Positions 9,715 to 27,046 of a stretch of DNA of 55,218 nucleotides are shown here, piece after piece; position 1 is the first letter of the stretch, and every line of letters starts with the position of its first letter. A program made the translations under genes and the position numbers. The stretch lies in contig CAZCSQ010000001.1 of the NCBI GenBank assembly GCA_964501425.1, positions 1 through 55,218 of the forward strand, written 5' to 3'. Origin of the DNA: an uncultured Erysipelotrichaceae bacterium (GTDB lineage Bacteria; Bacillota_I; Bacilli_A; Erysipelotrichales; Erysipelotrichaceae). The notes below the pieces were generated by a model. The model was not told the origin of the DNA and made no database searches. It saw only the letters and a program-made list of their open reading frames with translations.

Positions 9715-9724
9715 ATGTCCTCCT

Positions 9725-9751
9725 TTAGCACTTAGTCAAACAGAGTGCTAA
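9725..9751. promoter_or_regulatory. CIRCE operator (HrcA binding site) in the htpG leader
   Basis: TTAGCACTT-N9-GAGTGCTAA versus the consensus TTAGCACTC-N9-GAGTGCTAA, a 17/18 match. It directly abuts the htpG SD: ...GTGCTAAAGGAGGACATATG on the minus strand. Confidence 0.85.
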
Positions 9752-9755
9752 TATC

Positions 9756-9784
9756 ATTCTAATACTTTTATTGCTTATTGACAA
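9756..9784 (-). promoter_or_regulatory. Candidate sigmaA promoter of htpG
   Basis: The minus strand reads TTGTCA (9784..9779), a 17 nt spacer, then TAGAAT (9761..9756), just upstream of CIRCE. Confidence 0.55.
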
Positions 9785-9793
9785 GTCTTTAAC

Positions 9794-9826
9794 TAAAAAA
9801 ACGAACTCTTAGAGTTCGATTTTTTT
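9794..9826 (-). terminator. Intrinsic terminator of the degV-family gene
   Basis: A-run, CGAACTC-TTA-GAGTTCG, then T-run. The stop codon sits in the loop. Confidence 0.65.
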
Positions 9827-13590: not shown

Positions 13591-13614
13591 CACATTTCTT
13601 AAATGTGTTTTTTT
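13591..13614 (+). terminator. Candidate riboswitch expression-platform terminator
   Basis: CACATTT-CTT-AAATGTG followed by T7, just upstream of the RBS. A second A/T-rich hairpin (AAAAAGACA-TTTA-TGTCTTTTT) sits at 13567-13588. Confidence 0.55.
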
Positions 13615-13632
13615 AGGAAAAGAGGTAAATTT

Positions 13633-14088
13633 ATGAATAAGAAGACTCTATTGAAAGTCGTTTTAGCGATTCTTTTAGCAAGTACAGCTTACTTTGCTTA
13701 TCGAACTTTCTATCAACCTAACACCCAAAGTGGTGTTAAAGAACTCCAACTGATCATTGAGGTTCAAGAAGAAGATGGATCAATGAAGGTTATCTTTGAT
13801 CAAACAGTTAAAACCGAAGCGGAAATATTAGCTGATTTTCTTTTAGAACTAGATGAAAGCGACGAATTACAGATTGGTTTAACTGGTAATGTAAGTGACC
13901 CTTATGGTCGAAGCTTAACTTCAATCAATGGCTATCAAACCACTGATTGGGCTAGTGGTCCTTGGTGGTTATATGATTCTGAAAACAACATTGAATGTAA
14001 AGAAGCTGAATTCTGTCCAGGTATTGATAGTTGTCCTATCTATGATGAAGATATCTTTGTCTTTTCATATACATCTACTATAGAATGA
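13633..14088 (+). CDS. Membrane-anchored DUF4430-like (transcobalamin beta-domain-like) putative cobalamin-binding protein
   Basis: N-terminal TM anchor, then SINGYQTTDWASGPWWLYD...PIYDEDIFVFSYT, which fits the DUF4430 pattern (ING..., W.Y, GD.I.F.Y). It is the first gene after the B12 riboswitch. ATG at 13633 is preceded by AGAGG, and the track start at 13603 lies inside the terminator hairpin. Confidence 0.65.
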   Translation: MNKKTLLKVVLAILLASTAYFAYRTFYQPNTQSGVKELQLIIEVQEEDGSMKVIFDQTVKTEAEILADFLLELDESDELQIGLTGNVSDPYGRSLTSINGYQTTDWASGPWWLYDSENNIECKEAEFCPGIDSCPIYDEDIFVFSYTSTIE

Positions 14089-14609
14089 AGCCGATCTTAA
14101 GAGTAGCCGTGATCGGTATGTTAGCTGCGACAACTGTCGCTTCCCAAGTCGTATTAGCGTTTGTGCCTAATGTTGAAGTAGTGACCTTATTATTTATCAT
14201 CTACGCTATAAATCTACGCACAAGTGACGCCTTTTTGATCGTTATCGTATTTACGATCATTGAAGGCTTAATTTGGGGAATCTCTGACTGGATGATCGGT
14301 TATCTTTGGATATGGAGCTTATTAGTCTTAGTTGTAAGTATCACTAAAAAGATCATAAACGATAATGCGGATGGATGGGCATTATTGGCTGGATGCTGGG
14401 GTCTAGCCTTTGGTCTTTTCTTCGCCTTGCAATGGGCACTTCTATATGGAATTAATGCAGGTTATGCTTATTGGATAAAAGGCATTGCGTTTGACTTGAT
14501 TCATATGGTATCTAATTATATTATTGTTTTATTACTGTTTACACCAATAAACAAACAATTTCGAAATATCTATCAAAGATTGGAGGTAGCTTATGGCCAT
14601 CACGACTAA
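14085..14609 (+). CDS. ECF-transporter S-component-like membrane protein (putative cobalamin-specific)
   Basis: 174 aa with about 5-6 TM segments. ATGA overlap with the preceding gene. The size and topology are typical of ECF S components, and it is under B12 riboswitch control. No family-specific motif was verified. Confidence 0.5.
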   Translation: MKPILRVAVIGMLAATTVASQVVLAFVPNVEVVTLLFIIYAINLRTSDAFLIVIVFTIIEGLIWGISDWMIGYLWIWSLLVLVVSITKKIINDNADGWALLAGCWGLAFGLFFALQWALLYGINAGYAYWIKGIAFDLIHMVSNYIIVLLLFTPINKQFRNIYQRLEVAYGHHD

Positions 14610-15039
14610 AGGCGGAGATACTGGATTATCCAATATCAAAGATAGCCGTTTACCAAAAACAGATATTGTCTTTGATGTATTGGGAACGATCGATGAATTA
14701 ATTGCTCACCTGGTTATTTGTCAGACACTGACCAAAAAAAATGAATTCAAAATGCTCGTTGATGATCTTTCTCTGATCGCTGCGATCATTGCTGGTCACC
14801 AAACAACATTTGATCAAAACAGAATCAAACAACTTGAAGAAATAATCTTCACATTTCATCATATTAACATTTTTTCTTATCCATATAACGATTATAATAA
14901 GAGTATCATCAACCTTACGCGCACTGTTGCCAGAAGGTTGGAGAGAGTATATTGGCAATACGATCAAAATCACGATTTAGATCATAATATTGGTATATAT
15001 CTAAATCGTTTATCTGATTATCTGTTCACTTTTATCTAA
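14593..15039 (+). CDS. pduO: PduO-type ATP:cob(I)alamin adenosyltransferase
   Basis: The N-terminal TKGGDTGLS...KTD..F.VLGTIDEL and the C-terminal RRLER...YLNRLSDYLF match the PduO/MMAB family. RBS GGAGG. Confidence 0.82.
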   Translation: MAITTKGGDTGLSNIKDSRLPKTDIVFDVLGTIDELIAHLVICQTLTKKNEFKMLVDDLSLIAAIIAGHQTTFDQNRIKQLEEIIFTFHHINIFSYPYNDYNKSIINLTRTVARRLERVYWQYDQNHDLDHNIGIYLNRLSDYLFTFI

Positions 15040-15139: not shown

Positions 15140-17656
15140 ATGATCTATTCAAAAGCAACCATTGAGAAACTTAACGCTGATATAGAAAGAGATTTCCCCT
15201 ATCTTTTTAAGATAGAAAACGATTTTTCTACCACTCATGAAGGTGTATCACGCTTAGTTATGTTGGATCGATACGCCCAAAAAGATCGTAGATTGAGCAG
15301 TTTAGGGGTTGGTGACATTGTTTTAACTGTCATCAAAGAAGATTTAAAATATCCAGCTCGTGGCATCGGTCTTGTCAAAGAAGTCGATTACACTGAAGAG
15401 ACAGTGATCATCGAAGTAGATGATGAGTTTAGAGCGACACTTGAAGATGACCAAGAAGCGGAAACTGGACTGATCAAAAGACATTTCCGTGATATCGACA
15501 AACCACTTGAAATCTTTTATGAACAGATCGCCAAGCGTGTTGGAAAAGCATTAGCTGGCACTGAACAAACCGAAGAATTAAAGATAAAATACAGTGAATT
15601 ATTTGCGAATGAACTAAAGAACCTTAATGTTGTCCCAGCTGGTCGCGTCTTATATGGCGCTGGTAGTGGAACCAAGGTTACCTATTTTAATTGTTTTGTT
15701 ATGCCGTTTGTGAATGACTCACGTGGTGGTATCGCTGATCATCGTAAAGAAGTCATGGAAATCATGTCGCGTGGAGGTGGTGTTGGAACTAACGGTTCTA
15801 CACTAAGACCAAAGTCGGCTCCAGCAAAAGAGGTCGGTGGGAAAAGTAGTGGTGCTGTTAGTTGGTTAAACGACATCTCTAACTTAACCAATCTAGTTGA
15901 ACAAGGTGGCTCAAGAAGAGGCGCCCAAATGATCATGTTAGCTGATTGGCATCCTGATATCATTGAGTTTATTATCTCTAAGATGCAAAATCCACGTGTA
16001 TTAAAATGGTTATCGGAAAACTCACAAGATGAGATCGTTCGCGAACAAGCAAATCGTAAATTAAAATTTACTCCACTTACACGCATAGAGCGTGAAATGT
16101 ATGAGGCTGTGCTTGATAATAAATCAGCACCAGCCCATGTAGTAGATTATGCTCGGGAAATATTGATCAATGGTGGACAACTTGAAGTTCAACAATCAGA
16201 ATTCTTAAATGGTGCTAATATCTCAGTTACGATCACTAAAGAGCTTATGCACGCTGTTAAAAACGATCTTACATTTGATCTACGTTTCCCTGATCTTGAA
16301 AGCTATACACCACAAGAAAAAGCCGAATATGATCGTTTATGGCATGAAATAGGCGATGTTAGAGAATGGGCAGCTTTAGGACATGGTGTCAAAGTCTATC
16401 GTACAGTAAGAGCTCGTGATATTTGGGATCTGATCTGTTTCTGTGCTACTTATTCAGCTGAGCCTGGTATCTTCTTTATTGATAACGCTAATGAAATGAC
16501 TAACGCTAAAGCCTATGGTCAAAAAGTCGTCGCGACTAACCCTTGTGGTGAACAACCTTTGGCACCTTATAGCGTTTGTAATTTAGCAGCGATCAATCTA
16601 GCTAATTTTGTAAATAAACAAACTGGTGATATCTTATTTGATAAATTAGAAAACAGTGTTCGTCTAACTGTACGCATGCAAGATAATGTTATTGATGATA
16701 CTCCTTACTTCTTAGAAGCTAACCGCGTTCAAGCCTTAGGCGAAAGAAGAGTCGGTCTTGGTATTATGGGTTTACATGATCTACTTATCTGGGCTAAGAA
16801 AAGATATGGTTCTAAAGAATCAATTGAAACGATCGATCAAGTGTTTAAGTGTATCGCTGAAAGTGCCTATCGTACATCAATTGAATTAGCTAAAGAAAAA
16901 GGTAGTTTCCCTTTCTTAAAAGATAACGCTAAATTCATTGAAACCGGCTATATGAAAAACATGAGTGAAGATATTCGACAGGGTGTATTAAAATATGGAA
17001 TTCGCAATAGCCATCTACTAACGATCGCTCCTACAGGATCTACAGGAACAATGATTGGCGTCTCAACTGGCCTAGAACCTTACTTCTCATTTACATATTT
17101 CCGCTCAGGTAGACTTGGTAAGTTCTTTGAAGTTAATGCACGCATCGTGGAAGAATGGTTGTCATTTAATCCCGATCATACCAGAGAAACCTTACCTGAT
17201 ATCTTTGTGAGCGCCATGGAACTAAGTCCTGAAGAACACGCCGATACTCAATGTGCAATTCAACGCTGGATTGACTCATCAATATCTAAGACCGTTAATG
17301 CCCCACGTGGCTTTACTGTTCGTCAAGTTCAAAAGATCTATGAAAGACTATATGATGGTGGTGCTAAAGGCGGAACTGTTTATGTCGATGGATCTCGTGA
17401 TTCGCAAGTATTGACCTTATCAAATGATGAAGATATTACTTGGGCACAAATGGATCTTGTCAGAGATTTTGGCGTAAGTGTAAAAGAAAAACAACCAGAA
17501 GAAAAGAAAACTGGTTTAAGATCAGATCGTCAAGACCGTAACATTGGTATTGAAGTTGGCGATATCTGTCCTATATGTTTAGAAGGTATAGTAGAAGAAA
17601 TTGGTGGTTGTAATACCTGCACCAATTGTAATGCGCAATTAAAATGTGGGTTATAA
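15140..17656 (+). CDS. nrdJ: Class II (adenosylcobalamin-dependent) ribonucleotide reductase
   Basis: 838 aa with TNPCGEQPL (active-site Cys), SISKTVN and a C-terminal CxxC...CxxC tail (CPICLEG...CNTCTNC). RBS GGGGAGG. Confidence 0.93.
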   Translation: MIYSKATIEKLNADIERDFPYLFKIENDFSTTHEGVSRLVMLDRYAQKDRRLSSLGVGDIVLTVIKEDLKYPARGIGLVKEVDYTEETVIIEVDDEFRATLEDDQEAETGLIKRHFRDIDKPLEIFYEQIAKRVGKALAGTEQTEELKIKYSELFANELKNLNVVPAGRVLYGAGSGTKVTYFNCFVMPFVNDSRGGIADHRKEVMEIMSRGGGVGTNGSTLRPKSAPAKEVGGKSSGAVSWLNDISNLTNLVEQGGSRRGAQMIMLADWHPDIIEFIISKMQNPRVLKWLSENSQDEIVREQANRKLKFTPLTRIEREMYEAVLDNKSAPAHVVDYAREILINGGQLEVQQSEFLNGANISVTITKELMHAVKNDLTFDLRFPDLESYTPQEKAEYDRLWHEIGDVREWAALGHGVKVYRTVRARDIWDLICFCATYSAEPGIFFIDNANEMTNAKAYGQKVVATNPCGEQPLAPYSVCNLAAINLANFVNKQTGDILFDKLENSVRLTVRMQDNVIDDTPYFLEANRVQALGERRVGLGIMGLHDLLIWAKKRYGSKESIETIDQVFKCIAESAYRTSIELAKEKGSFPFLKDNAKFIETGYMKNMSEDIRQGVLKYGIRNSHLLTIAPTGSTGTMIGVSTGLEPYFSFTYFRSGRLGKFFEVNARIVEEWLSFNPDHTRETLPDIFVSAMELSPEEHADTQCAIQRWIDSSISKTVNAPRGFTVRQVQKIYERLYDGGAKGGTVYVDGSRDSQVLTLSNDEDITWAQMDLVRDFGVSVKEKQPEEKKTGLRSDRQDRNIGIEVGDICPICLEGIVEEIGGCNTCTNCNAQLKCGL

Positions 17657-17671
17657 TAACTTATATAGACT

Positions 17672-17702
17672 AAAAACGATACCATAGGGTACCGTTTTTT
17701 TT
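17672..17702. terminator. Bidirectional terminator between nrdJ and the ABC/phosphoesterase operon
   Basis: AAAAA-CGATACC-ATAG-GGTACCG-TTTTTTTT, with one internal mismatch. Confidence 0.7.
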
Positions 17703-17707: not shown

Positions 17708-19174
17708 TTAAAATGGCGCATTATCATTCTCAGGTCGTCCATTCATTAATAGACGTCCTGCTTTTGGCATTTTAATAACTTGCAATTTCTTTACATAATC
17801 AAACAAAGCCTCATGCATTGAAATGCCAATATCTTCCCACTTGAAGCGTAAAGCGAAATCAGTAGTATCATTACCACCACCAGCCATATAGCGACTAGTC
17901 GCGATCGTATATGTTTCATCAAGCTGGAGTATAGATCCATCTTCTAACAAGATCTTTTGAACTTTATGAGGACTTTTTTTAGTATTATCAATCTCAACGA
18001 TCAATCCCGAGAAGATAAGTGTGGCGTTATTACCATACCTTTCTGGCATATAGACAAGTTCAAATAAATCCCAAATATCTTGACCCTTAACTTTCGTTAC
18101 CTTGATTGGATCATCAAAACCATTACACATTACAAGATGTTCTTGAGTGATCTTACCCTTAGGCAGTGTCCCACCACAGCTTGTGGCGTTCATATAACCA
18201 ATTTGGGTCTTAGCTGTCGCCTTTAAACAATCACTCATGAAATTACCTAAGGGGCTTTCGTATGATAAGCGCATCGGTAGATCATTTTCATTGATCGCAA
18301 TCACTTCATCGAAGAAGTGAGCATAAGGTTTCGTTACTTTTTCTACAAAATCTTCAATCTCTTTATTATTGATTCTAAAATCACCATGTTCAACGTCAAT
18401 TACCCGTGCACTTTTTCCTACAACTGTACGGGTTTCTGTATCAAATTGTAAGGTCGCATGTGGTAGTGAATCCCCACCAAAGCCACCTTTAAGGACAGCG
18501 GCACCTTTATAGATATCACCATAATCACCTGGTATATGACCACCAATATAACAATCAACACCTAACTCGATTGTATCATCAATAAACTGGATCAATTCTC
18601 CCCCTAACGGTTCAGTATAAAAGGGGAAATGCGTTGCCGCAATAATGATTTCAGCTCCCAATTCTTTTAAAAGAGGCACATATTCATACATAAAATCTTT
18701 AGCAGGTTTAACATAGTATGGCTCAAAAGCACTTCTTTCCACCATGTATGGTGTATATTCAGTAGTCAATCCAATAATGCCTATCTTTATGCCGTCTTTT
18801 TCAAGCATGACATACGGTAGTGTCCCTTGTACTCTTTGATCAGTTTCTTTTTCAAAGATGTTAGCACATAAAACAGGAAAAGGATTGTTTTCAATAGCTT
18901 CCTCTAAAAACTCTTTACCACCATCAAATTCGTGATTACCTAAGGTCATTACATCAGTACCGATCAAATGAAGACCTTCCATCACTGCTTTACCCTTCCA
19001 CAATGATCTTGAAATATTATCTCCAACATCTATAAGTAGCGTACGATCAGGATTTAAACTACGTACTGATTCAATAGCTCCATAAAAACGTAATAATCCA
19101 GGACCTTTTAAACTTTCTTTGAACGTACCATTATAATCAGCATGTCCTAAAATATCAATATTAACTATTGCCAT
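17708..19174 (-). CDS. 5'-nucleotidase/metallophosphoesterase family protein, no signal peptide
   Basis: VGDNISRS and GNHEFD metallophosphatase motifs, a C-terminal 5'-nucleotidase-like domain and a hydrophilic N-terminus (MAIVNIDILGHADYNG). TAATG overlap with the upstream permease gene. Confidence 0.82.
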   Translation of the reverse strand: MAIVNIDILGHADYNGTFKESLKGPGLLRFYGAIESVRSLNPDRTLLIDVGDNISRSLWKGKAVMEGLHLIGTDVMTLGNHEFDGGKEFLEEAIENNPFPVLCANIFEKETDQRVQGTLPYVMLEKDGIKIGIIGLTTEYTPYMVERSAFEPYYVKPAKDFMYEYVPLLKELGAEIIIAATHFPFYTEPLGGELIQFIDDTIELGVDCYIGGHIPGDYGDIYKGAAVLKGGFGGDSLPHATLQFDTETRTVVGKSARVIDVEHGDFRINNKEIEDFVEKVTKPYAHFFDEVIAINENDLPMRLSYESPLGNFMSDCLKATAKTQIGYMNATSCGGTLPKGKITQEHLVMCNGFDDPIKVTKVKGQDIWDLFELVYMPERYGNNATLIFSGLIVEIDNTKKSPHKVQKILLEDGSILQLDETYTIATSRYMAGGGNDTTDFALRFKWEDIGISMHEALFDYVKKLQVIKMPKAGRLLMNGRPENDNAPF

Positions 19175-20004
19175 TATCCCTTTATTCCTCCTCTTGATAC
19201 ACCAGAAACAATATATTTACGACTGAATAAGAATAAGATGATCATTGGTAAAACAACGATCGTTGCGGCAGCCATTAGTCTTTCGTAACGAACTCCACCT
19301 TCAGCAATAAACGCAAAGACTCCAAACGGCAAGGTTCTATTACTTGTACTATTAATGACAAGAACTGTCCATAAAAATGAGTTCCAAGCTGCGATCGTAT
19401 TTAATAAAGCAATCGTAATGATCGTAGGTTTAGCGATCGGAACCATGACCCACCATAAATACTTCCAATCTGAAGAGCCATCAACTTTGGCCGAGTAATA
19501 TAAACTATCCGGTATTGATAAAAAGAAATTCCGCAAGATGTATGTATAAAAAATACTTGCCGTAAACGGTATGACCAACGCAATTAAATTATCCATTAAT
19601 CCCCATTTAGCAATCGTTGTATAGTTGGTGATGATCAACATTTCAAATGGAATCATCATCATCGCGATCAAAATCGAAAATATAATATTACTACCTGGAA
19701 ATTTTAAACGACTAAAGGCAAAAGCGGCTAAGATTGTTGTAAACATCGTGATTGTTACACAGGCTATCGTTACAACTAAAGAGTTTAAGAAATAACGAGC
19801 AAATGGGGCAGTCTTTAAAGCAAATATATAATTCTCTAGGGTAAAATTTGATGGGAAAAAGGTAGGTGGTATCATACTTACTTCTACTTGTGTCTTTAGT
19901 GATGACAATATCATCCATAAGAAAGGAAAGATCATGACAACCGCTCCACACATTAATAACGTTAGAGTCAGTAAATTAGTAAATTTTAATTTCTTTTTCT
20001 TCAT
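19174..20004 (-). CDS. ABC transporter permease (CUT1/MalG-UgpE-like)
   Basis: Polytopic, with an EAA-loop-like segment (YYSAKVDGSSDWKYLWWVMVPIAKP). I prefer the ATG at 20004 (RBS AAAGGTGGG) over the track start at 20031. Confidence 0.88.
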   Translation of the reverse strand: MKKKKLKFTNLLTLTLLMCGAVVMIFPFLWMILSSLKTQVEVSMIPPTFFPSNFTLENYIFALKTAPFARYFLNSLVVTIACVTITMFTTILAAFAFSRLKFPGSNIIFSILIAMMMIPFEMLIITNYTTIAKWGLMDNLIALVIPFTASIFYTYILRNFFLSIPDSLYYSAKVDGSSDWKYLWWVMVPIAKPTIITIALLNTIAAWNSFLWTVLVINSTSNRTLPFGVFAFIAEGGVRYERLMAAATIVVLPMIILFLFSRKYIVSGVSRGGIKG

Positions 20005-20015
20005 AGCACCCACCT

Positions 20016-20939
20016 TTAATAATTCTTCCATTTTCGCTGCATGTACAATTGAATAAGCGTTAAGATCATAACAATAAAGAACAAGGCGATAGCACTAGCC
20101 GCCGCTGTTCCTAAGCGGTACTTAACATAAAATTGTTCATACATAAAATAGATTACTGTATATAACGAGTATGCTGGACCAGGCTTACCATTAAACAACG
20201 CAAATAGTTCATTAAACACCTTAAAACCGGTAATCATATTAACGATCATGGTTAAGCCGATCGTTGGAGCAAGTAAAGGTACTGTAATATAAGCAAATGT
20301 TTGAACTGGTTTTGAACCATCTACTTGAGCAGCGATCAGATATTGCTTATTAATATTTTGTAGTCCCGCCAATAGAAGGATGATCGTAAAAGGCATCATC
20401 GACCAAATACCATAGATAATAAGCGCTATCTTGGCATAACCAGGATTGCTTAGCCAGTTTATTGTTTCTGCACCTAACTGTGATAAAACAAAATTTATCA
20501 GTCCATAATCAAAATTAAACAACCAGCGCCAAACAAGACCTATCGCTATAGCTGATGTTACCAGCGGTAAAAAATAAGCAGTTTGAAAAAAGGCTTGTAG
20601 CTTAGTCTTACGATTTAACATTACCGCTACCAACAATGATAATCCTGTTGATATTGGGACAACCCACAATACATAAGTTACTGTATTCTTTAATCCTAAA
20701 ATGAAGGCTTCATTAGTTAACACAAACTCATAATTACCAAATCCATAAGCAGTAAAACTTCCACTAAGTGCTTTATAGTTCTCTTTTAATGAAATAACAA
20801 ATGCATTAAAGAATGGATAAATAGTAAATATCGAAATAGAAATAATAAAAGGTAATAAATATAGAAGTGGCTTTAAGTAAGTTTTATATGTGATCTTGAC
20901 ATCAGTGTCAACATCGCGTCTTTTCTTGATAAAGCTCAT
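20016..20939 (-). CDS. ABC transporter permease (CUT1/MalF-UgpA-like)
   Basis: Polytopic, with EAA loop LIAAQVDGSKPVQTFAYITVPLLAP. ATGA overlap with the ATPase gene. Confidence 0.88.
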   Translation of the reverse strand: MSFIKKRRDVDTDVKITYKTYLKPLLYLLPFIISISIFTIYPFFNAFVISLKENYKALSGSFTAYGFGNYEFVLTNEAFILGLKNTVTYVLWVVPISTGLSLLVAVMLNRKTKLQAFFQTAYFLPLVTSAIAIGLVWRWLFNFDYGLINFVLSQLGAETINWLSNPGYAKIALIIYGIWSMMPFTIILLLAGLQNINKQYLIAAQVDGSKPVQTFAYITVPLLAPTIGLTMIVNMITGFKVFNELFALFNGKPGPAYSLYTVIYFMYEQFYVKYRLGTAAASAIALFFIVMILTLIQLYMQRKWKNY

Positions 20940-21985
20940 AACAACCGTGTTCCACTTTCCTCTTCAAATAAGAAAATTCCAAAATCTTTCATTCCAACTC
21001 CAACAGTATCCCCTATTTGAATCGTTCTATCTTCTGTGTAAGCTCTTAGACTTCCACTACCATATTGTAGGCGCACTAAGGTGTCTTTCCCCACTTTATA
21101 TTTTTCAAGTATTTCTGCTTCAAATTTCTTTTCTAGATTCAAATTTAGTGCTTCAGCCCGTGATGCATAGACAAGACGTGTTCCTTTTGCGATATCAATA
21201 GCGAACGGAATAACTGAATTTTGTCCATCAGCCACAAATCCACTGCCATTCCAGACACCATGAACTTGATTGATGGTAGGAGTTCCTAAGAAATCAGCTG
21301 TAAATAAATTAACTGGATTATCACACAACTCATCAACTGTGCCAAACTGTTGTTGGACTCCGCGCTTCAGTAACATGATCGAATCTGAGATAGAACTAGC
21401 TTCTTCTTGATCGTGTGTAACGAAGATTGTGGTTACTCCAGATTCTTTTTGAATGCGACGAATCTCTTCTCTCATTTCAACCCGTAGTTTTGCGTCTAGG
21501 TTTGAAAGAGGTTCATCAAGTAATAAAAGACGAGGTTCTTTTATTAAAGCACGTGTAATCGCCACGCGTTGTTGTTGACCGCCAGACAATTCAGCTGGTT
21601 TACGATCTAAGTATTCTTCGATATGTACCAAATTAATGAACTTCATAGCTCTTTCAATTCTTTCTTTCTTTGGTACGCCTCTAATACGAAGTGGGAAACA
21701 AACGTTTTCAAGTACTGTCATATGAGGATATAGAGCATAGTTTTGAAAAACCAAACCCACTCCACGCTTATCAGCTGGTAAATCAGTGACATCTTCATCA
21801 TCAAAGAATATCTTTCCTTCTGTTGAAGGTAAGATACCCGATAGCATATTTAGCATGGTTGACTTTCCGCAACCCGATGGACCAAGTAGTGCGATTAATT
21901 TTCCATCACTAAATTCAGCATTTACATGATCTACAGCTGTGAAATCACCAAATTTCTTTGTTAGGTCTTTGATCGTAACTTTCAT
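20936..21985 (-). CDS. ABC transporter ATP-binding protein (MalK/UgpC/MsmX-like, with a C-terminal regulatory domain)
   Basis: GPSGCGKST (Walker A), LSGGQQQRVAI (signature) and LLLDEPLS (Walker B). The 349 aa length is typical of CUT1 ATPases. Confidence 0.93.
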   Translation of the reverse strand: MKVTIKDLTKKFGDFTAVDHVNAEFSDGKLIALLGPSGCGKSTMLNMLSGILPSTEGKIFFDDEDVTDLPADKRGVGLVFQNYALYPHMTVLENVCFPLRIRGVPKKERIERAMKFINLVHIEEYLDRKPAELSGGQQQRVAITRALIKEPRLLLLDEPLSNLDAKLRVEMREEIRRIQKESGVTTIFVTHDQEEASSISDSIMLLKRGVQQQFGTVDELCDNPVNLFTADFLGTPTINQVHGVWNGSGFVADGQNSVIPFAIDIAKGTRLVYASRAEALNLNLEKKFEAEILEKYKVGKDTLVRLQYGSGSLRAYTEDRTIQIGDTVGVGMKDFGIFLFEEESGTRLL

Positions 21986-23277
21986 TATTTTAATATCTCC
22001 TTCAGAACTCTACCATCGATATCTTCCATCGTTATTCCCATTACAGCAGCCATCGTTGGCGCTTCATCCACCATATCCGCTACTTCAACCACAACTCCTT
22101 GCTTAAAGGCTGGTCCTGCTGCGACAAGCGTTGTTGATTCAACTCGATCTTTGATACAACTACCATGAGTTGCTGCGCCAGTTTTGTGATTACCTGGTTC
22201 TTTAGAACCCCAAATAGATATTCCATCGAAGTCTTCTTTAAACGCTATATTTTTATTAGATTCAATCACAAAGTCAAATGGACCAGCAAGCCCTATTTTC
22301 TCACGCGCTTCTTGGGCATCATACACAAAGGCTAGTGAAATTGCTGGATCAACGATCAATGATTCTAAAAACGCTTTAACCTCTTTTAATAAAAGCTCAT
22401 CGCTTGGATCACTTATTTCAATCAAGCATGCAAGACCGGTCGAATGACCATATGCTTTATATGATTCAATATTTCCTTCTTTATCTAAAGTGATTAATCC
22501 ATTATCCACAAATAACTTGTTGATCTTTAACACATCATGGATATCCGTTTGACCATGATCGCCGATTAACATGAAATTAGTATTATCATAATCACCATAT
22601 CGCTTGATTGTTTCAACCAGGATTCCAAACTCTTCATCATGTTTACGAAGTTGTTCTTTAGTATTTTCATGATATACACCATCAGTATGGCGAACACTAT
22701 CAAGATCACACATCTTAACAAGCATGACATCTGGTTGACCAAAATCTTGGATTAGATCAGGAGCGATCGCCATTGTATATAGATCTAAACTGCGATCATT
22801 ACCTTTAATATAACGACCATATTTCCAGAAATATTTGTCCATGAGATTTTTAGTAGCCGTATTCTCTAAATAACTTTCTGGATTCCATCCTTTATAGCTA
22901 TAAGGAACGATCATTGGCATATTATAAGTATAATCAGCACCACCACTCACCGGCCATGATAAAGAACAAGTCGTCAATCCAGCCTCCATGGCGTAATCAA
23001 GGAAAGTTTTACTTGTGACATCTTTTCTCATACCATGCCATAAAGCACCGCTTTGTGCTCCCCGCTTTAAAATCTCATTATGAGCTATACCATGATTTTT
23101 AACATATTTACCAGTTATGATCGATGTATGACAACAATAAGTTAAAGCTGGACATACCGGTTCAATACTCTTTACATAAGATCCTTTTTCAAATAATTCA
23201 GCGAAATGCGGCAGTGTCTTCATAAAATCAATATCGCTAGCACATAACGCATCCATCATAAATACAAATAGTTTCAT
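21985..23277 (-). CDS. Nucleotide pyrophosphatase/phosphodiesterase (NPP, alkaline-phosphatase superfamily), no signal peptide
   Basis: N-terminal metal-Asp strand (KLFVFMMDAL), the nucleophile motif PALTYCCHTSIITG (PxxTxPxHxSxxTG) and LIGDHGQ. ATG at 23277 has RBS GGAAGG, and the track start at 23307 has none. Confidence 0.82.
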   Translation of the reverse strand: MKLFVFMMDALCASDIDFMKTLPHFAELFEKGSYVKSIEPVCPALTYCCHTSIITGKYVKNHGIAHNEILKRGAQSGALWHGMRKDVTSKTFLDYAMEAGLTTCSLSWPVSGGADYTYNMPMIVPYSYKGWNPESYLENTATKNLMDKYFWKYGRYIKGNDRSLDLYTMAIAPDLIQDFGQPDVMLVKMCDLDSVRHTDGVYHENTKEQLRKHDEEFGILVETIKRYGDYDNTNFMLIGDHGQTDIHDVLKINKLFVDNGLITLDKEGNIESYKAYGHSTGLACLIEISDPSDELLLKEVKAFLESLIVDPAISLAFVYDAQEAREKIGLAGPFDFVIESNKNIAFKEDFDGISIWGSKEPGNHKTGAATHGSCIKDRVESTTLVAAGPAFKQGVVVEVADMVDEAPTMAAVMGITMEDIDGRVLKEILK

Positions 23278-23278
23278 A

Positions 23279-24712
23279 TTACCTTCCATTCTTTTGTAGA
23301 CCAACACCGGGTACTACGATATATGTTTCACCAAGTTCAGGTATAAATTGCACACCATCTTTTGGTAAAAGTCTTTCTGGGTTTAGCGAGTGACAAGGCA
23401 CTAGCATCTTGGGGTTAGTTTCATCAACGAAATATTTAGTTTCGCATGGATAACCATGACCAAAGTATTTCGTATACATGAAATTTACATATTCAAATTG
23501 AGACTTATCCACTAACATCCGCATTTTTTTATACGCTGGATCAAACTCACCAATCGGAATACCCGAATAATGAATATAAGCCGCATCAACTGACGGTAGT
23601 GAGAATAATTCCATAATGTTTGGATAAGTATTTTGTAAGAAATACCCTCTTGGATTTAACTGAATCTCATCAAGAGTGACGATCGTACAATTCTGCAACA
23701 ATTCTTTAAACCAATCTTTATCTTTGATAGTCTCAATATTACGACTATCCGGCACGTAAACAAACGGCTTTATTTGGTGATACTTATAAACGATGTACGC
23801 TGTTTCTGGCTCAAAAACACATAGACGACCGGTTTTCTTAGCCCACATAAAACAATCCTCAACATCATCCATTTCTCGTTCATAGAAATTAAAAACACAT
23901 AATCCTTTGACTTGTTCAATGCGTTTATAAATTTCATCAATATATTGACTATTTGTCAAATAACCATCAACAGGTGTTTTGCATGGTTTGATATTCTTGG
24001 GATTTCCATCTAAATAAGACGACATCTTACCCCAAACACTATCCATAAAGGAAGTAGCTTCACACAATAACACATCTACCTCATCATCCTTCACAATTTC
24101 CATTTGTTTCAAAGTCATTGAGTTATCTTGATCATGTAATGTTATATCACCTGTCCAATGAATCTTAGCACCATCTGGAGTATGTACTAAAAAAGCAAAA
24201 TCATAATGCCCACGATCGCGACATATGATAGGTAATACCTTTATAGCTCCGACCATTATCCATTCATTTGGTTTGAAATGAGTATAATCACGTCCGTTGT
24301 TATCTATTCCTTTACCTATTTCTTCTAAAGCTCTTTCAATAATCTGGGCTTTTTCATGAAGATAAACCGGAATTTCTTTAGCGACAGTACCCATGTTTGA
24401 CATGTGATCTAAATGAAGATGTGATATAAATACAGCTGAGTTATACTCAGTATCCTCGTAAGCAACAACTCCATCATATCCATTCAGATCATCTTTAGAG
24501 TAAAGACCATCGATGGCAGGAAGAGCTTTTAAACGCAGTTTATCTACTAACCAATTCTTGTTTCTTGGCATGACAATACCATCATAAACATCACTTGTTG
24601 GATCATACGCCGATCCCATTTCCAATACAACACGATCTTTACCATATGTTACAGTAAAGACAACTCCACCTATTGTATGAGTACCAGAATACATTTTAAA
24701 CTCTGTATGCAT
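23279..24712 (-). CDS. RNase J-like metallo-beta-lactamase/beta-CASP family protein, no signal peptide
   Basis: HLHLDH (HxHxDH; nt 24404-24421), then VHTPDG and HWTGDI. LLCEATS aligns by eye with RNase J LLSDSTN, and LCVFNFYEREMDDV...GRLCVFEP with IIFATFASNIHRL...GRKVAVFG. GHG and LVPCHS align with beta-CASP motifs B and C. RBS AGGAGG. Confidence 0.7.
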   Translation of the reverse strand: MHTEFKMYSGTHTIGGVVFTVTYGKDRVVLEMGSAYDPTSDVYDGIVMPRNKNWLVDKLRLKALPAIDGLYSKDDLNGYDGVVAYEDTEYNSAVFISHLHLDHMSNMGTVAKEIPVYLHEKAQIIERALEEIGKGIDNNGRDYTHFKPNEWIMVGAIKVLPIICRDRGHYDFAFLVHTPDGAKIHWTGDITLHDQDNSMTLKQMEIVKDDEVDVLLCEATSFMDSVWGKMSSYLDGNPKNIKPCKTPVDGYLTNSQYIDEIYKRIEQVKGLCVFNFYEREMDDVEDCFMWAKKTGRLCVFEPETAYIVYKYHQIKPFVYVPDSRNIETIKDKDWFKELLQNCTIVTLDEIQLNPRGYFLQNTYPNIMELFSLPSVDAAYIHYSGIPIGEFDPAYKKMRMLVDKSQFEYVNFMYTKYFGHGYPCETKYFVDETNPKMLVPCHSLNPERLLPKDGVQFIPELGETYIVVPGVGLQKNGR

Positions 24713-24730
24713 AGATACCTCCTAATTTAT

Positions 24731-24762
24731 AAAAGAGTTATCGCGAAAACGATAACTCTTTT
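24731..24762 (-). terminator. Strong intra-operon stem-loop after the binding-protein gene (attenuating terminator or mRNA stabiliser)
   Basis: A 13 bp perfect stem, AAAAGAGTTATCG / CGATAACTCTTTT, with a 6 nt loop. It lies in the 64 nt gap between the SBP gene and the RNase J-like gene. Confidence 0.55.
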
Positions 24763-24776
24763 AGGTCTTCTAATAA

Positions 24777-26051
24777 TTAATAAGATTGTAATTCGCTATT
24801 ACTTGCGGCTACACAATCCGCAAGAGCTTGTTCAGGAGTTTTTAAACCTGTACTAGCTTCTTGGACCATCTTTGTTATATAACCACGTACTGATGCTGAA
24901 CCAGCAATACTATTTAACCAACCAAAACTATCTAATTGGTCATATAATGCTTTAGCAGCAATATTTGTATTTAGATAATCTTGATAAACCGTTGTTTCAA
25001 CAGCAGTCTTATAAGCAGGAAGTCCACCTAAAGTTGTTGCCCAACTAGCTGATACATCTGTTGAACTCAAATATTTTAAGAATGCGAAAGCTGCGTCTGC
25101 TTTTTCTTCAGTAGTCTTGAAAGAAATGTATCCACCACCCCATGAAGGGATGTAATCATGACCAAGACCCATTTGTGGCATTGGTGCAACACCAACTGTA
25201 AACTTATCGCCAGCTGCGCCTAATGCATACTGTACACCAGCACTTGAACCTAAATAAGAACCTACTGCTTCAGATCCAAATGGATTTGAGAAATAGAAAT
25301 CTTCGCCTACTAAACGGAAAACGCTTTCACTGACTAAACCTGAGAACCATGTTAATTGTTCTAATGTGGTTTCATTGTCAAATTCAACCATCTTTGTTTC
25401 AGGATTAATATAGCCAGATCCTGCTTGCATGATCAAATCTTGGAATGTATCTACTTCTGAATCAGTTCCAAAACCTGGAACACCTTTGTTTTCTAAGATA
25501 ACACGACTGTTAGCTTCTAATTGTTCCCATGTTGTTGGAACTTCTAATTCTAACTCCTCATACCATGTAGCATTGTAATACAATACTTCAGAAGTCTGGA
25601 TTGTTGGAATCATATAAATAGCTTCTTCACCCCATTGTGTGATCTCGCCATATAGATTACCAATCAAATTATCTTTAAAGTCAGCAATACCATTTTCTCC
25701 ATTAATATATGGAGCGAAATCAACTACTAAATCTTCATCGATGTAAGCAGATACGGCTGTAGGATATGCACTGACAACATCTGGTCCTACTCCGTTTCTA
25801 ACAGCTTGTAAAATCTTTGCTTCATAATCTTGATAAGCTTGAGGCTGAACAACAACCTTCACCGCTGTTTGTGATGCATTGAAATCCGCAACGATCTGAT
25901 TGTATGCTTCTGCATGATGCTCTGTGTAAGTGTTCCAAACGATTAACTCAACTGGTTCACTTGGTTCTTTTTCTCCACCATCTGTAGTTGTACTACAAGC
26001 AGCTAAAGAAAGTGATACTAAAATGACTAATAAAACCTTGATCAACTTCAT
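24777..26051 (-). CDS. ABC transporter substrate-binding lipoprotein (family 1 / CUT1-type)
   Basis: Signal peptide with lipobox LSLAAC-S. At 424 aa, its size and composition are typical of family-1 solute-binding proteins. RBS AAAGGAGG. Confidence 0.88.
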   Translation of the reverse strand: MKLIKVLLVILVSLSLAACSTTTDGGEKEPSEPVELIVWNTYTEHHAEAYNQIVADFNASQTAVKVVVQPQAYQDYEAKILQAVRNGVGPDVVSAYPTAVSAYIDEDLVVDFAPYINGENGIADFKDNLIGNLYGEITQWGEEAIYMIPTIQTSEVLYYNATWYEELELEVPTTWEQLEANSRVILENKGVPGFGTDSEVDTFQDLIMQAGSGYINPETKMVEFDNETTLEQLTWFSGLVSESVFRLVGEDFYFSNPFGSEAVGSYLGSSAGVQYALGAAGDKFTVGVAPMPQMGLGHDYIPSWGGGYISFKTTEEKADAAFAFLKYLSSTDVSASWATTLGGLPAYKTAVETTVYQDYLNTNIAAKALYDQLDSFGWLNSIAGSASVRGYITKMVQEASTGLKTPEQALADCVAASNSELQSY

Positions 26052-26164
26052 TTTTTTCCTCCTTTGTCGTGTGTTAGTTACTCACAAGACTAACTATGTT
26101 TATATTACCATATAAGCATAGCTTTTATCGTCTAAATATGTATTAAATTAAGTTAAATTTAAAA

Positions 26165-26266: not shown

Positions 26267-27046
26267 TTATTTGATTACTTGTTTAACTTCAATGTTAAAC
26301 AGATTCTTTATCTTTGCCACATAGATCAATAACCCACAATAGATAAAAGTCACAATGATCGATAATACAAACTGACCATACATCGGCAAGATGTAGATCA
26401 ATGCATTAAAGACAATAAGCATCGCTAAAGCAAACAAGACATAACGTCGATCGTTATTGTTTTTCTCTCTTACTAAAAGATAGGTTAATATAACATTCAC
26501 AATGATCACAAAGATAGCTGTAAAAGCATAGTATAAGATCGTATCAGCTGTAGCGGCCTGAGCGTTACTTATTACCGTTTCCGCATCCGCAACTGATAAG
26601 ATATCATAAATCGTTCCATTATTGATCTTAAGTGCATAACTTAGATTGGTAAACATCATCATTCCCATTGAAAAGAGGACTTCACCTGTTCCTATACCAA
26701 TCGCAATTGATGATACTTCTTTATTTGAATGGGTATTAGGTAATAGGTATTTGAATGAGAATTTTCGACCATAAACATCAATCAAAGATATGATCAATAC
26801 TGATAATGGAATCGTAAAAGCCGTTTGCGCAAGTAATGGATTATCACCAAACATTAAAGTGATAAAATTAAGTAGTGGATTCATGATGAATAGATTCAAC
26901 ACTAAAAAGATAAACATCCCCATCAATAATCTGACAATATCTAATTTCTTCCTTATCAAACCAAAGACAACAATAAAGATCGGTAATACTACTGTTGTGA
27001 TATTAGCAAAGTATAAACTGAACATTGTCAAAGAATTTATCATCAT
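26267..27046 (-). CDS. Polytopic membrane protein of unknown function (possibly YhfC-like)
   Basis: 259 aa with about 7 hydrophobic segments. I could not confirm a diagnostic motif. Confidence 0.55.
   Translation of the reverse strand: MMINSLTMFSLYFANITTVVLPIFIVVFGLIRKKLDIVRLLMGMFIFLVLNLFIMNPLLNFITLMFGDNPLLAQTAFTIPLSVLIISLIDVYGRKFSFKYLLPNTHSNKEVSSIAIGIGTGEVLFSMGMMMFTNLSYALKINNGTIYDILSVADAETVISNAQAATADTILYYAFTAIFVIIVNVILTYLLVREKNNNDRRYVLFALAMLIVFNALIYILPMYGQFVLSIIVTFIYCGLLIYVAKIKNLFNIEVKQVIK

Follow-up and report, generated by a model that had tools for sequence, protein, structure and literature searches.

A seven-gene operon coupling an ABC importer to three predicted cytoplasmic phosphoesterases, a candidate system for import and breakdown of short nucleic-acid fragments

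In a 55,218-nucleotide stretch of DNA from an uncultured Erysipelotrichaceae bacterium (hereafter the window), seven minus-strand genes form a single operon at positions 17708–26051, encoding a substrate-binding lipoprotein (SBP), an RNase J-like hydrolase of the metallo-β-lactamase fold (MBL), an NPP-family phosphodiesterase, an ABC ATPase, two permeases and a member of the 5′-nucleotidase superfamily (NT5). Based on comparative evidence, we put at roughly 0.55 the probability that the operon imports oligo- or dinucleotides and dismantles them in the cytoplasm, which would constitute an uncharacterised route for importing short nucleic-acid pieces and breaking them down. Reading of the open reading frames placed all seven genes head to tail, with the following features in and around the unit:

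26102..26110, minus strand: candidate extended -10 promoter element (TGGTAATAT), read from the sequence upstream of the SBP gene
26058-26064, minus strand: ribosome-binding site AAGGAGG, read from the sequence ahead of the SBP gene
24777..26051, minus strand: lipoprotein SBP of CUT1/cluster D type, 424 aa (Pfam SBP_bac_8, 1e-30; lipobox LAAC)
24730..24763, minus strand: stem-loop in the spacer separating the SBP gene from the MBL gene (-18.2 kcal/mol, z = -5.9)
23279..24712, minus strand: β-CASP MBL-fold hydrolase, EF2904-like, predicted cytoplasmic, 477 aa (weak Lactamase_B_2 match; Foldseek)
21985..23277, minus strand: NPP-family phosphodiesterase, predicted cytoplasmic, 430 aa from ATG (Pfam Phosphodiest, 1e-40)
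20936..21985, minus strand: ABC ATPase of UgpC/MalK type (Pfam ABC_tran; best NCBIfam model UgpC)
20016..20939, minus strand: permease 1, UgpA/MalF-like (BPD_transp_1; best NCBIfam match UgpA)
19174..20004, minus strand: permease 2, UgpE/MalG-like (BPD_transp_1; best NCBIfam match UgpE)
17708..19174, minus strand: NT5, 5′-nucleotidase/UshA/CpdB superfamily, predicted cytoplasmic, 488 aa (Metallophos + 5_nucleotid_C)
17672..17699, both strands: bidirectional intrinsic terminator, also serving the convergent nrdJ gene (folding on both strands)

Sequence reading and folding gave the junctions, the hairpin after the SBP gene and the closing terminator just as the preliminary description had them. 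The stop and start codons meet as TAA-t-ATG (MBL/NPP), TAATG (NPP/ATPase and permease 2/NT5) and ATGA (ATPase/permease 1), and the terminator, flanked by A and T runs, folds at -13.6 and -10.2 kcal/mol on the two strands. Permease 2 likely starts at the ATG at 20004, leaving an 11-nt gap after permease 1, while the ATG at 20031 would produce a 16-nt overlap; for NPP, orthologues use the ATG at 23277, and the GTG at 23307, chosen by the ORF tool, extends the frame upstream. The overlapping junctions and single terminator define a tightly coupled unit, which counts in favour of the nucleic-acid reading. The element at 26102..26110 is likely a -10 promoter element; it is kept in one related locus (L006) and occurs as TGCTAATAT in another (L008). 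In the latter, a 77-85% identical relative, the SBP/MBL hairpin is also retained with a compensatory A:U to G:C change, and an Oscillospiraceae locus (L009) carries a different, unrelated GC-rich hairpin at the same position. The stem-loop probably stabilises or attenuates the transcript, such that the SBP would be produced in excess.

Linkage was counted in a non-redundant set of 79 loci retrieved with the MBL, the counts being lower bounds as many loci end at contig ends. The SBP adjoins the MBL in at least 50 of the 79; the full ABC set is present in at least 36, NPP in at least 32, a second MBL in at least 29, NT5 in at least 25 and all seven genes in at least 17. Identical gene order was found in Erysipelotrichaceae, Oscillospiraceae, other Clostridia, Anaerolineaceae and Sphaerochaetaceae, that is, across Bacillota, Chloroflexota and Spirochaetota, and the MBL is linked to the same ABC family in at least four phyla and in several gene orders. 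Dozens of unrelated genomes share the arrangement, so it is not due to chance. The proposed conservation of SBP, RNase J-like protein, NPP and 5′-nucleotidase across Bacillota thus held well beyond that phylum, but as a modular system and not as a fixed seven-gene set: an ABC core is combined with one or more enzymes drawn from MBL and NT5 (each of which can occur twice), NPP and a HAD phosphatase. Searches from SBP homologues yielded NPP-only, MBL+NPP+HAD and NPP+2xNT5 variants. The MBL is commonly the sole enzyme in Bacillaceae, where family members sit in ATPase-permease-permease-SBP-MBL units, and in one Erysipelotrichia variant a cysteine phosphatase and a different AP-superfamily enzyme are swapped in.

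The computational tests proposed in the preliminary description all came out in its favour. Profile and fold searches bore out its domain calls (RNase J/β-CASP-like MBL, NPP, 5′-nucleotidase family, CUT1-type transporter), and its statement that it knew of no characterised system with this gene combination is consistent with our finding that no curated NCBIfam model reaches its cutoff for any cluster protein and that a literature search for the function of the cluster returned no paper assigning one. The best-scoring curated models for the transporter are those of E. coli Ugp (UgpBAEC + UgpQ; sn-glycerol-3-phosphate, glycerophosphodiesters), likewise a CUT1 phosphate-ester importer co-transcribed with a cytoplasmic phosphodiesterase. 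The ATPase matches UgpC over its full length at 322 bits, under the 432-bit cutoff, and the permeases match UgpA (3.5e-29) and UgpE (6e-34), also below cutoff; all scores are far under the equivalog cutoffs. In place of the Ugp system's GDPD enzyme, the operon encodes the β-CASP MBL, NPP and NT5.

The closest PDB relative of the SBP, by sequence (E 3.5e-17) and by fold of its AF2 model (pLDDT 91; E 1e-26, TM 0.79), is the Thermus thermophilus protein that binds the dinucleotide uridylyl-3′-5′-phosphoguanosine (U3G; 7C0F series; Chandravanshi et al. 2021, FEBS J 288:4614, as cited in PMC12718374), although the fold matches to sugar binders (GacH, cyclic maltosyl-maltose binder) are nearly equal (E 2e-25 vs 1e-26). 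The eight residues mutated in the Thermus protein align in our SBP to Y73, Y96, T98, T153, Y253, S269, Y275 and W304; all eight ligand-site positions are identical or similar, with its Q274 replaced by W and N81 by T/S, and most are kept even in MBL-linked SBPs of <30% identity. The phosphate ligands shared by UgpB and the Thermus protein (Y42, S121, S247 and R374 in UgpB) are retained as well, whereas the W169/W172 clamp with which UgpB holds glycerol, located in an insertion, is absent from all 58 SBPs compared. Aromatic residues Y253 and Y275 are common to the Thermus protein and not to UgpB; aromatic residues, however, also stack on sugars. Cumulatively, this comparison appears to sharpen the substrate idea towards nucleotide-containing phosphodiesters. 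As a functional anchor the Thermus protein is nonetheless weak: identity to the SBP is only about 22-25%, its operon of the same CUT1 importer type consists of two permeases and an SBP with no MBL, NPP or NT5, and U3G was "endogenously bound", having co-purified with the protein.

The MBL matches Pfam Lactamase_B_2 weakly, under the gathering score. Its AF2 model (pLDDT 87.6) returned EF2904 of Enterococcus faecalis (PDB 2AZ4) as top Foldseek match (TM 0.72), followed by RNase J (TM about 0.64) and CPSF-73, and EF2904 is also its sole significant PDB sequence match (3e-25). With EF2904 and RNase J it shares the MBL and β-CASP folds, the HxHxDH motif and the His/Asp motifs that follow; among orthologues, HLHLDH and additional His/Asp residues do not vary. 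Bacillaceae members of the family are much closer to EF2904 (3e-53), a Bacillus-type member matches RNase J directly by sequence (2e-8), and distant members match the RMMBL RNA-specificity domain. To our knowledge, all characterised β-CASP enzymes act on nucleic acids. EF2904 itself was never assigned a function (PMC3095777). RNase J is a housekeeping RNase, whereas the MBL is encoded with a transporter, is only 13-16% identical to it, lacks its C-terminal dimerisation domain and reaches 23 bits on TIGR00649, the model for RNase J (cutoff 400). One natural fusion (P0382) joins this MBL family to the HAD family seen upstream in 13 loci.

The catalytic set of NPP is intact, with nucleophile T46 and metal ligands D9, D193, H197, D240, H241 and H371 invariant or nearly so among orthologues; its PDB relatives are NPP7 (top), NPP4, NPP1 and snake-venom phosphodiesterase. 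The catalytic threonine is followed by tyrosine (T46-Y47), as against Thr-Phe in nucleotide-specific NPPs and Thr-Ser in NPP6/7. The 5′-nucleotidase-family call was confirmed for NT5 at the level of domains but not of the canonical active site. Compared with E. coli UshA, and in its numbering, D41, D84, N116, H117, D120, H217 and H252 are conserved and the base-stacking pair F429/F498 is retained as F353/Y429. NT5 also has a conserved C-terminal tail, G-R-P-E-N-D-N-A-P-F, and the NadN, UshA and CpdB models of NCBIfam all match it. UshA residues H43, Q254 and the phosphate-binding arginines R375/R379/R410 are not conserved, and motif I departs from the canonical DxH. Lacking this motif and the three arginines, NT5 may not be a 5′-nucleotidase, and with such a non-canonical active site the precise reaction it catalyses should not be taken for granted.

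Secretion signals agree with the earlier proposal that only the SBP is exported. It carries a signal peptide and the lipobox L-A-A-C at residues 16-19, whereas inspection of the N-termini of MBL, NPP and NT5 revealed no hydrophobic segment and no lipobox, and in orthologue alignments each begins directly at the first conserved catalytic strand (β-1 in NPP). Periplasmic or surface UshA, CpdB and NadN and the ecto-NPPs belong to the same superfamilies and share much of the metal-binding catalytic core, but they are exported and act before uptake.

Taking these observations together, we infer the following order of events. Di- or oligonucleotides, the most likely cargo, would arise extracellularly as secreted nucleases digest RNA or DNA, and would be captured by the SBP via the Tyr/Ser(Thr)/Ser/Arg phosphate site and the aromatics shared with the Thermus protein. 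The UgpAE-like permeases and the UgpC/MalK-like ATPase would bring the phosphodiester in, and the MBL and NPP would cut it in the cytoplasm to mononucleotides, possibly from opposite ends by analogy with RNase J (5′-to-3′) and venom-type NPP (from the 3′ end). NT5 would then remove the phosphate, giving nucleosides and Pi for salvage or catabolism, a role that a HAD or cysteine phosphatase may fill or share in other genomes. Given that oligoribonucleases are already present in cells, it is not obvious why a dedicated enzyme set would be needed.

Neighbouring genes at related loci bear on the cargo in two directions. In a Rossellomorea locus, a secreted 1483-aa nuclease containing two SNase domains and OB folds is encoded immediately upstream; PhoX and the nucleoside transporter NupC neighbour a Bacillus locus, a xanthine/uracil permease another locus (L091), and two PNP_UDP_1 genes (nucleoside phosphorylases) with a nearby UPRTase an Oscillospiraceae locus. 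These are single loci and not a statistical enrichment. The HAD phosphatase and the RpiR regulator, missing from this window, are frequent extra members elsewhere and the only recurring families in one set of 133 neighbours, RpiR/SIS being the most frequent regulator beside the cluster. Such regulators usually sense phosphosugars, and their prevalence would thus also fit a sugar-phosphate polymer as cargo.

It is conceivable, with a chance of perhaps one in five, that the same architecture handles a non-nucleic-acid phosphodiester (glycerophosphodiesters, or teichoic-/lipoteichoic-acid, phosphoglycan or capsule fragments), cleaved to sugar or polyol phosphates that are then dephosphorylated. 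The Ugp-like transporter scores, the RpiR/SIS regulators and HAD phosphatases typical of phosphosugar metabolism, and the Erysipelotrichia variant fit this alternative, as do NPP6 and the top match NPP7, which are choline-phosphodiester hydrolases, and the phosphate ligands of the SBP, of which Tyr/Ser are, according to PMC12718374, conserved in UgpB and in the proteins that bind GPC or U3G, but not among glucose binders. It is opposed by the missing glycerol clamp, the β-CASP fold, the base-stacking pair of NT5, the Thr-Tyr of NPP and the nuclease, nucleoside and nucleobase genes nearby; moreover, a domain search of the window and related loci detected no GDPD (UgpQ/GlpQ) enzyme.

Somewhat less probable is a small nucleotide derivative as cargo, with NPP and NT5 doing the main work, be it NAD/NADP, FAD, UDP-/CDP-sugars, ADP-ribose, cyclic dinucleotides or 2′,3′-cyclic or 3′-nucleotides. 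Compounds of exactly this kind are the classical substrates of the NPP and UshA/NadN/CpdB families, the SBP pocket resembles one holding a single dinucleotide, and variants with NPP and NT5 but without MBL exist. Conversely, MBL-only variants are common in Bacillaceae, one of them adjoining the SNase-type nuclease, the β-CASP nuclease fold is not known to act on cofactors with a pyrophosphate linkage, and NT5 is devoid of UshA's substrate-phosphate-binding arginines.

That the MBL instead targets endogenous RNA, or serves some other housekeeping or regulatory function apart from the cargo, is improbable: its RNase J-like fold and the MBL pairs found without adjacent ABC genes in some Erysipelotrichaceae loci would allow it, but the linkage to one ABC family across phyla, the HAD fusion and the divergence from RNase J argue otherwise. 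Least probable of all is an ordinary sugar importer with coincidental or extracellular phosphoesterase neighbours, as suggested by source labels of SBP homologues ("multiple sugar transport system") and the close fold matches to sugar binders, since the translationally coupled junctions and cross-phylum co-occurrence rule out coincidence, the hydrolases lack signal peptides, the SBP has the phosphate-ligand set that glucose binders lack, and no glycoside hydrolase or sugar kinase was found in the unit by domain search of the window and related loci.

The proposed import and dismantling of short nucleic acids has a partial parallel in the Mollicutes, of which Erysipelotrichaceae are regarded as close relatives. 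In the surface-nuclease/ABC operons MAG_5030-5070 of M. agalactiae and mhp379 of M. hyopneumoniae, for which nucleic-acid precursor import was proposed (PMC3585158), a "sugar"-type lipoprotein SBP and ABC importer are likewise co-transcribed with a nuclease. An SNase-domain nuclease is also what the Rossellomorea locus has upstream. In Mycoplasma, the nuclease is an SNase lipoprotein that works outside the cell, ahead of import, whereas the operon described here encodes three cytoplasmic hydrolases of different families.

The seven genes lie head to tail on the minus strand (17708-26051), and we read them as an operon that would import short nucleotide phosphodiesters, its predicted cargo, and dismantle them in the cytoplasm, a reading to which we assign a probability of roughly 55%.

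Genes of the operon, from the binding-protein gene downstream
24777-26051, minus strand: SBP gene (ORF), lipoprotein substrate-binding protein with lipobox LAAC
23279-24712, minus strand: MBL gene (ORF), beta-CASP protein of the metallo-beta-lactamase fold
21985-23277, minus strand: NPP gene, phosphodiesterase of the AP superfamily; the start is the ATG used by the orthologues, the GTG at 23307 being an upstream extension
20936-21985, minus strand: ATPase gene (ORF)
20016-20939, minus strand: permease 1 gene (ORF)
19174-20004, minus strand: permease 2 gene (ORF)
17708-19174, minus strand: NT5 gene (ORF), protein of the 5'-nucleotidase family

The preliminary description had placed seven such genes within 17708-26160, with tight junctions, a perfect hairpin 3' of the SBP gene and a bidirectional terminator closing the unit, and each of these features was recovered. 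All ORFs are present; MBL and NPP are joined as TAA-t-ATG, NPP and the ATPase as TAATG, the ATPase and permease 1 as ATGA, and permease 2 and NT5 as TAATG, with a gap between the permeases of 11 nt, again as described. The 64-nt spacer from SBP to MBL contains the perfect stem-loop (-18.2 kcal/mol, z = -5.9), which is kept through a compensatory change in a relative of 77-85% identity, and an Oscillospiraceae locus has a hairpin unlike it at the equivalent position 3' of the SBP gene. A hairpin at this site is the usual device by which a binding protein is produced in excess over membrane components, and the stem-loop of the window would likewise provide for more SBP than membrane components. 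The terminator folds on both strands, with the convergent nrdJ on its other side, and an extended -10 element 5' of the SBP gene is conserved. No riboswitch or leader RNA was found in or upstream of the operon in an Rfam scan of the whole window. A candidate operator in the promoter-RBS interval, GTTAGT-N10-ACTAAC, was dropped for want of conservation in an Erysipelotrichaceae relative (L008). Directly upstream of the operon, at 26267-27046 on the minus strand, lies an ORF for a polytopic membrane protein carrying the intramembrane metalloprotease domain YhfC. In the nearest Erysipelotrichaceae relatives a homologue adjoins the operon, on its upstream side in L006 and downstream in L007 and L008, and in other lineages none is found beside it.

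The transporter had been assigned to the CUT1 type and its binding protein to the exported lipoproteins, and profile searches bear out both assignments. SBP has a signal peptide ahead of its lipobox and matches Pfam SBP_bac_8 (1e-30) and SBP_bac_1 (2e-25), BPD_transp_1 is found twice and ABC_tran once, and the set as a whole is that of CUT1 (TC 3.A.1.1), with an exported SBP_bac_1/8-type SBP, two permeases and a MalK/UgpC-type ATPase. Among NCBIfam models, the permeases and ATPase align full-length to UgpA, UgpE and UgpC and to MalF, MalG and MalK, the top-scoring ones being UgpC, UgpA and UgpE. No NCBIfam equivalog scored above its cutoff with any operon protein, and SBP reached 40 bits against the UgpB model NF008211, whose cutoff is 411.

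The nearest solved structure to SBP is U3GBP, the dinucleotide (U3G)-binding protein of Thermus thermophilus (PDB 7C0F series), described as 'dinucleotide-binding protein of ABC transporter endogenously bound to uridylyl-3'-5'-phospho-guanosine'. It was the top match with both phmmer (E 3.5e-17) and Foldseek (E 1e-26, TM 0.79), and by fold the sugar binders nearly match it as relatives of SBP (2e-25), the margin being small. The eight residues mutated in the U3GBP study were mapped onto SBP by two independent alignments: Y56, Y224 and Y246 are identical (Y73, Y253 and Y275 of SBP), F79, S127 and T240 are conservatively replaced (Y96, T153 and S269), and N81 and Q274 are changed (T98 and W304), so the site is 3/8 identical, 3/8 conservative and 2/8 changed, an agreement that hints at a shared ligand without proving it. 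Most of the eight positions are kept even among MBL-linked SBPs of less than 30% identity.

The phosphate-coordinating Tyr/Ser/Ser/Arg residues of the Ugp system are also found in SBP, in that Y42, S121, S247 and R374 of E. coli UgpB align with Y73, T153, S269 and R389, and these are conserved in the family. Since UgpB shares conserved Tyr/Ser phosphate ligands with the GPC-binding and U3G-binding proteins, and glucose binders lack them (PMC12718374), the retention of these residues argues that the ligand of SBP almost certainly carries a phosphate ester. The W169/W172 glycerol clamp of UgpB lies in an insertion that, by alignment, is missing from U3GBP and from 58 of 58 MBL-linked SBPs, that of the window included, and the aromatic residues Y253 and Y275, common to SBP and U3GBP, are E and N in UgpB. 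As judged from these residues, the ligand is not G3P bound in the manner of UgpB, and the predicted pocket most resembles one known to hold a dinucleotide.

A phosphodiester cargo outside the nucleic acids, for example a glycerophosphodiester or a fragment of teichoic acid or phosphoglycan, is unlikely, and is the best placed of the alternatives. The Ugp-like scores of the transporter favour such a cargo, as do the neighbours of the cluster, 13 loci having a HAD gene directly upstream and 9 an RpiR/SIS regulator. Against it stand the missing Trp clamp, the beta-CASP fold of MBL and the lack of a GDPD-family phosphodiesterase (UgpQ/GlpQ), none being found in the operon by Pfam or among the recurrent neighbours. 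In pairing an importer with cytoplasmic enzymes the operon follows the logic of Ugp with UgpQ, and of peptide importers with peptidases. Its low equivalog scores and its want of both the Trp clamp and a GDPD enzyme show that it is not itself a Ugp system. A small nucleotide derivative, e.g. NAD, a UDP-sugar or a cyclic dinucleotide, is improbable as the cargo. Import and stepwise cytoplasmic degradation of a phosphodiester, as proposed in the preliminary description, was backed by every computational test run, and the sequence evidence would support narrowing that interpretation to nucleotide phosphodiesters.

The analysis establishes operon structure, folds, catalytic residues, a cytoplasmic location of the hydrolases, gene linkage and the fusion described below. 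For nucleotide phosphodiesters we envisage the following route, in which substrate, reaction order and cleavage polarity are predicted. RNA or DNA outside the cell would be cut by secreted nucleases, the short fragments would be captured by the lipoprotein SBP, and import would be through the Ugp-like permeases, driven by the ATPase. Inside the cell, the beta-CASP MBL and NPP would cleave the imported products to mononucleotides, possibly from opposite ends of the substrate by analogy with RNase J and the venom-type NPP phosphodiesterases, and Pi and nucleosides would be freed by the NT5-like protein, a part that a HAD or PTP enzyme may play in other genomes.

The three hydrolases are cytoplasmic. 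As had been noted before, none has a signal peptide or lipobox, the export signal among the operon products being confined to SBP, and in alignments the orthologues of MBL, NPP and NT5 all begin at the first catalytic strand. The Pfam match of MBL is weak; its AlphaFold model (pLDDT 87.6) has as top Foldseek match EF2904, an Enterococcus faecalis protein (PDB 2AZ4; TM 0.72), followed by RNase J of many species (TM ~0.64, 13-16% identity) and then CPSF-73, and the alignments to all three are full-length. MBL is a beta-CASP protein because its model matches these structures, and the earlier description of it as RNase J/beta-CASP-like stands as to both fold and motifs: H98-L-H-L-D-H103, H185, D189, D213/D224, H381, H419 and H441 vary little or not at all. 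It does not belong to RNase J proper (23 bits with TIGR00649 against a cutoff of 400), and no RNase J C-terminal domain could be aligned in it (477 aa vs ~555). In a library of 1.84 billion representatives the family is compact, 187 of them matching at E <= 1e-30, and most loci on sufficiently long contigs have the same ABC family next to MBL. That MBL is a housekeeping RNase, as its fold might suggest, is very improbable given this linkage and its score with TIGR00649. An ordinary sugar importer, for which the close fold match of sugar binders might speak, deserves almost no weight beside the phosphate ligands of SBP.

MBL also occurs as two adjacent, overlapping paralogues of ~30-35% identity (L002, 10001-12824; L022; L024), and pairs are present in many Erysipelotrichaceae loci as well (L038, L044, L047, L062-L072 and others), some without adjoining ABC genes. 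The first paralogue (MBL1) keeps HxHxDH in 83/83 sequences and the second (MBL2) in 30/30, for which reason MBL2 was rejected as an inactive partner of the RNase J2/CPSF-100 kind; retention of the motif in both points to a heterodimer in which each beta-CASP subunit is active, in contrast to CPSF-73/100.

Membership of NPP in its family, also proposed earlier, is well founded (Pfam Phosphodiest 1e-40, 140.8 bits vs a gathering cutoff of 23), and its catalytic set is conserved, with T46 as the Thr nucleophile and D9, D193, H197, D240, H241 and H371 as the six metal ligands. The extracellular or periplasmic location of characterised NPPs was not found for it, in that it has no signal peptide and its orthologues all start at strand beta-1. 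NT5, likewise as assigned before, scores above the gathering thresholds of both Metallophos and 5_nucleotid_C, and its top NCBIfam match is the 5'-nucleotidase half of YfkN-type enzymes. Compared with E. coli UshA, D41, D84, N116, H117, D120, H217 and H252 are conserved and H43 and Q254 are not; the first motif is H-A-D, not D-x-H, and the His two residues before D13 might serve as a substitute. The phosphate-binding R375, R379 and R410 of UshA align, at low identity, to L/W, L and G across the NT5 family, which apparently lacks them, and the UshA nucleobase-sandwich pair F429/F498 corresponds to F353 (31/32 F) and Y429 (32/32 Y). By its sequence NT5 belongs to the superfamily, a 5'-nucleotidase reaction being putative. 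A strongly conserved C-terminal tail, G-[RT]-P-E-N-D-N-[AS]-P-[FYW], is seen in an alignment of the NT5-like family (17708-17740 in the window), and the second NT5 paralogue does not have it; the tail might dock onto, e.g., the transporter ATPase or another pathway enzyme.

Conservation of the gene combination, proposed earlier as a check within Bacillota, was found across Bacillota, Chloroflexota and Spirochaetota. The window proteins are 94-97% identical to those on a contig of an uncultured Erysipelotrichaceae MAG, and a survey of one genome per species, queried with the MBL alignment, gave 79 distinct loci. SBP is present in 50 of these, the full ABC set in 36, NPP in 32, a second MBL in 29, NT5 in 25 and all seven genes in 17, counts that are lower bounds since contig ends cut many loci. 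The exact order SBP-MBL-NPP-ATPase-permease-permease-NT5 is shared by Erysipelotrichaceae, Oscillospiraceae, other Clostridia, Anaerolineaceae (Chloroflexota) and Sphaerochaetaceae (Spirochaetota), and differing layouts occur in Cohnella, Bacillus, Rossellomorea, Paenibacillus, Leucobacter and Bifidobacteriaceae. With SBP homologues as the starting point, SBP-NPP-ABC (Oceanobacillus), HAD-MBL-SBP-NPP-ABC (Treponema) and permease-SBP-NPP-ABC-NT5-NT5 layouts were found. An Erysipelotrichia variant adjoining an MBL pair and ABC genes (L062, L063, L066, L067, L071, L072) encodes a cysteine phosphatase (Y_phosphatase3) that is extended far at its N-terminus, together with a second AP-superfamily protein (Phosphodiest) of divergent sequence. 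Given these varied layouts, the system is modular, consisting of an ABC core with at least one phosphodiesterase (beta-CASP MBL, NPP) and at least one phosphomonoesterase (NT5-like, HAD, Y_phosphatase3). P0382, an 808-aa protein of the 1.84-billion-representative library, is a natural fusion of an EF2904-like beta-CASP MBL (31% identity to that of the window) and the HAD family found upstream of the cluster (28% identity, E 5e-21), and is thus direct evidence that MBL and HAD act in one pathway. Searches of the PDB with the HAD neighbour returned generic PH0459-like HADs only and were uninformative. An MscS-like channel is encoded near the Erysipelotrichia variant module.

Several neighbours are related to nucleic acids. 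Adjoining a five-gene ATPase-permease-permease-SBP-MBL unit are a protein of 1483 aa that combines two SNase domains with OB folds, directly upstream and truncated at the locus start (Rossellomorea vietnamensis, L082, 2-4453), a PhoX phosphatase with a NupC nucleoside transporter (Bacillus sp. 1P02SD, L074, 1108-4405) and, in another Bacillus locus that also holds a HAD gene, a signal-peptide-bearing GmrSD_C/HNH-like protein (L080, 14837-15469). A xanthine/uracil permease is found at L091, and two nucleoside phosphorylase genes, with UPRTase close by, in Oscillospiraceae. These are individual cases with no statistical enrichment, the only recurrent Pfam families in one set of 133 flanking genes being HAD (10) and RpiR HTH_6/SIS (6).

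The Thermus U3GBP operon was considered as a hydrolase-bearing counterpart and ruled out: unlike the operon of the window it has no enzymes, consisting in Thermus and Allomeiothermus of two permeases and the SBP only. No ATPase or hydrolase gene lies near it at either locus (L085, Thermus thermophilus, 6497-10254; L086, Allomeiothermus silvanus), and the flanks differ between the genera; its permeases are unusually long (377-421 aa). In the SNase-ABC operons of mycoplasmas a lipoprotein on the cell surface serves as the nuclease, ahead of import, whereas the hydrolases here are cytoplasmic, and the substrate of those operons is likewise proposed and equally unproven (PMC3585158). Pfam found no surface SNase-type nuclease in the window operon, the SNase-domain neighbour being limited to L082. 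The one paper found to mention EF2904 still lists it as hypothetical (PMC3095777). In line with the earlier remark that no characterised counterpart of the gene combination was known, searches on EF2904, oligonucleotide ABC importers, beta-CASP proteins with transporters, and U3GBP, in literature mostly outside subscription journals, returned no paper characterising the cluster.

Extracellular DNA and RNA are major pools of P, N and C in guts, digesters, soils and sediments. The uptake routes known to us carry only nucleosides, nucleobases and phosphate, after complete external hydrolysis, and to our knowledge the steps between extracellular nuclease digestion and cytoplasmic nucleotide metabolism are poorly defined. 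The cluster is predicted to be a conserved cross-phylum pathway bearing on bacterial feeding on extracellular nucleic acids, and a dedicated importer of oligo- or dinucleotides with its own cytoplasmic enzymes would, if real, fill this gap. More tentatively, it may be a widespread, horizontally mobile module for oligonucleotide utilisation, in which the EF2904-like beta-CASP protein is a dedicated cytoplasmic nuclease, a cytoplasmic NPP works from the other end and the finishing phosphatases (NT5-like, HAD or PTP-like) are interchangeable; such a module would be the first defined bacterial route taking short nucleic-acid fragments whole as nutrients. The import reading would also give a function to the EF2904-like beta-CASP family, an orphan of structural genomics that was solved in 2005 and is not known to have been assigned a function since. 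It would further place NPP and 5'-NT-like enzymes, usually regarded as exported, in cytoplasmic roles, and lend physiological meaning to the lone dinucleotide-binding SBP of Thermus. Were the cargo another phosphodiester, the cluster would still be a conserved, uncharacterised nutrient pathway, and it is readily testable, having a single SBP and three enzymes that are soluble, and occurring in hosts available in culture (Cohnella, Bacillus, Rossellomorea, Paenibacillus).

Unrelated to the operon, the sole Rfam match in the window is a cobalamin riboswitch (RF00174, 13376-13545, plus strand, 81 bits). It is followed by four ORFs (13603-14088, 14085-14609, 14593-15039 and 15140-17656), of which two are small and without a Pfam match and the others encode a PduO-type cobalamin adenosyltransferase and NrdJ, a B12-dependent class II ribonucleotide reductase. 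A B12-repressed leader ahead of a B12-using enzyme would be unusual; nrdJ may have a promoter of its own in the 100-nt gap 5' of it, and a B12 uptake component may be encoded by the two small ORFs.
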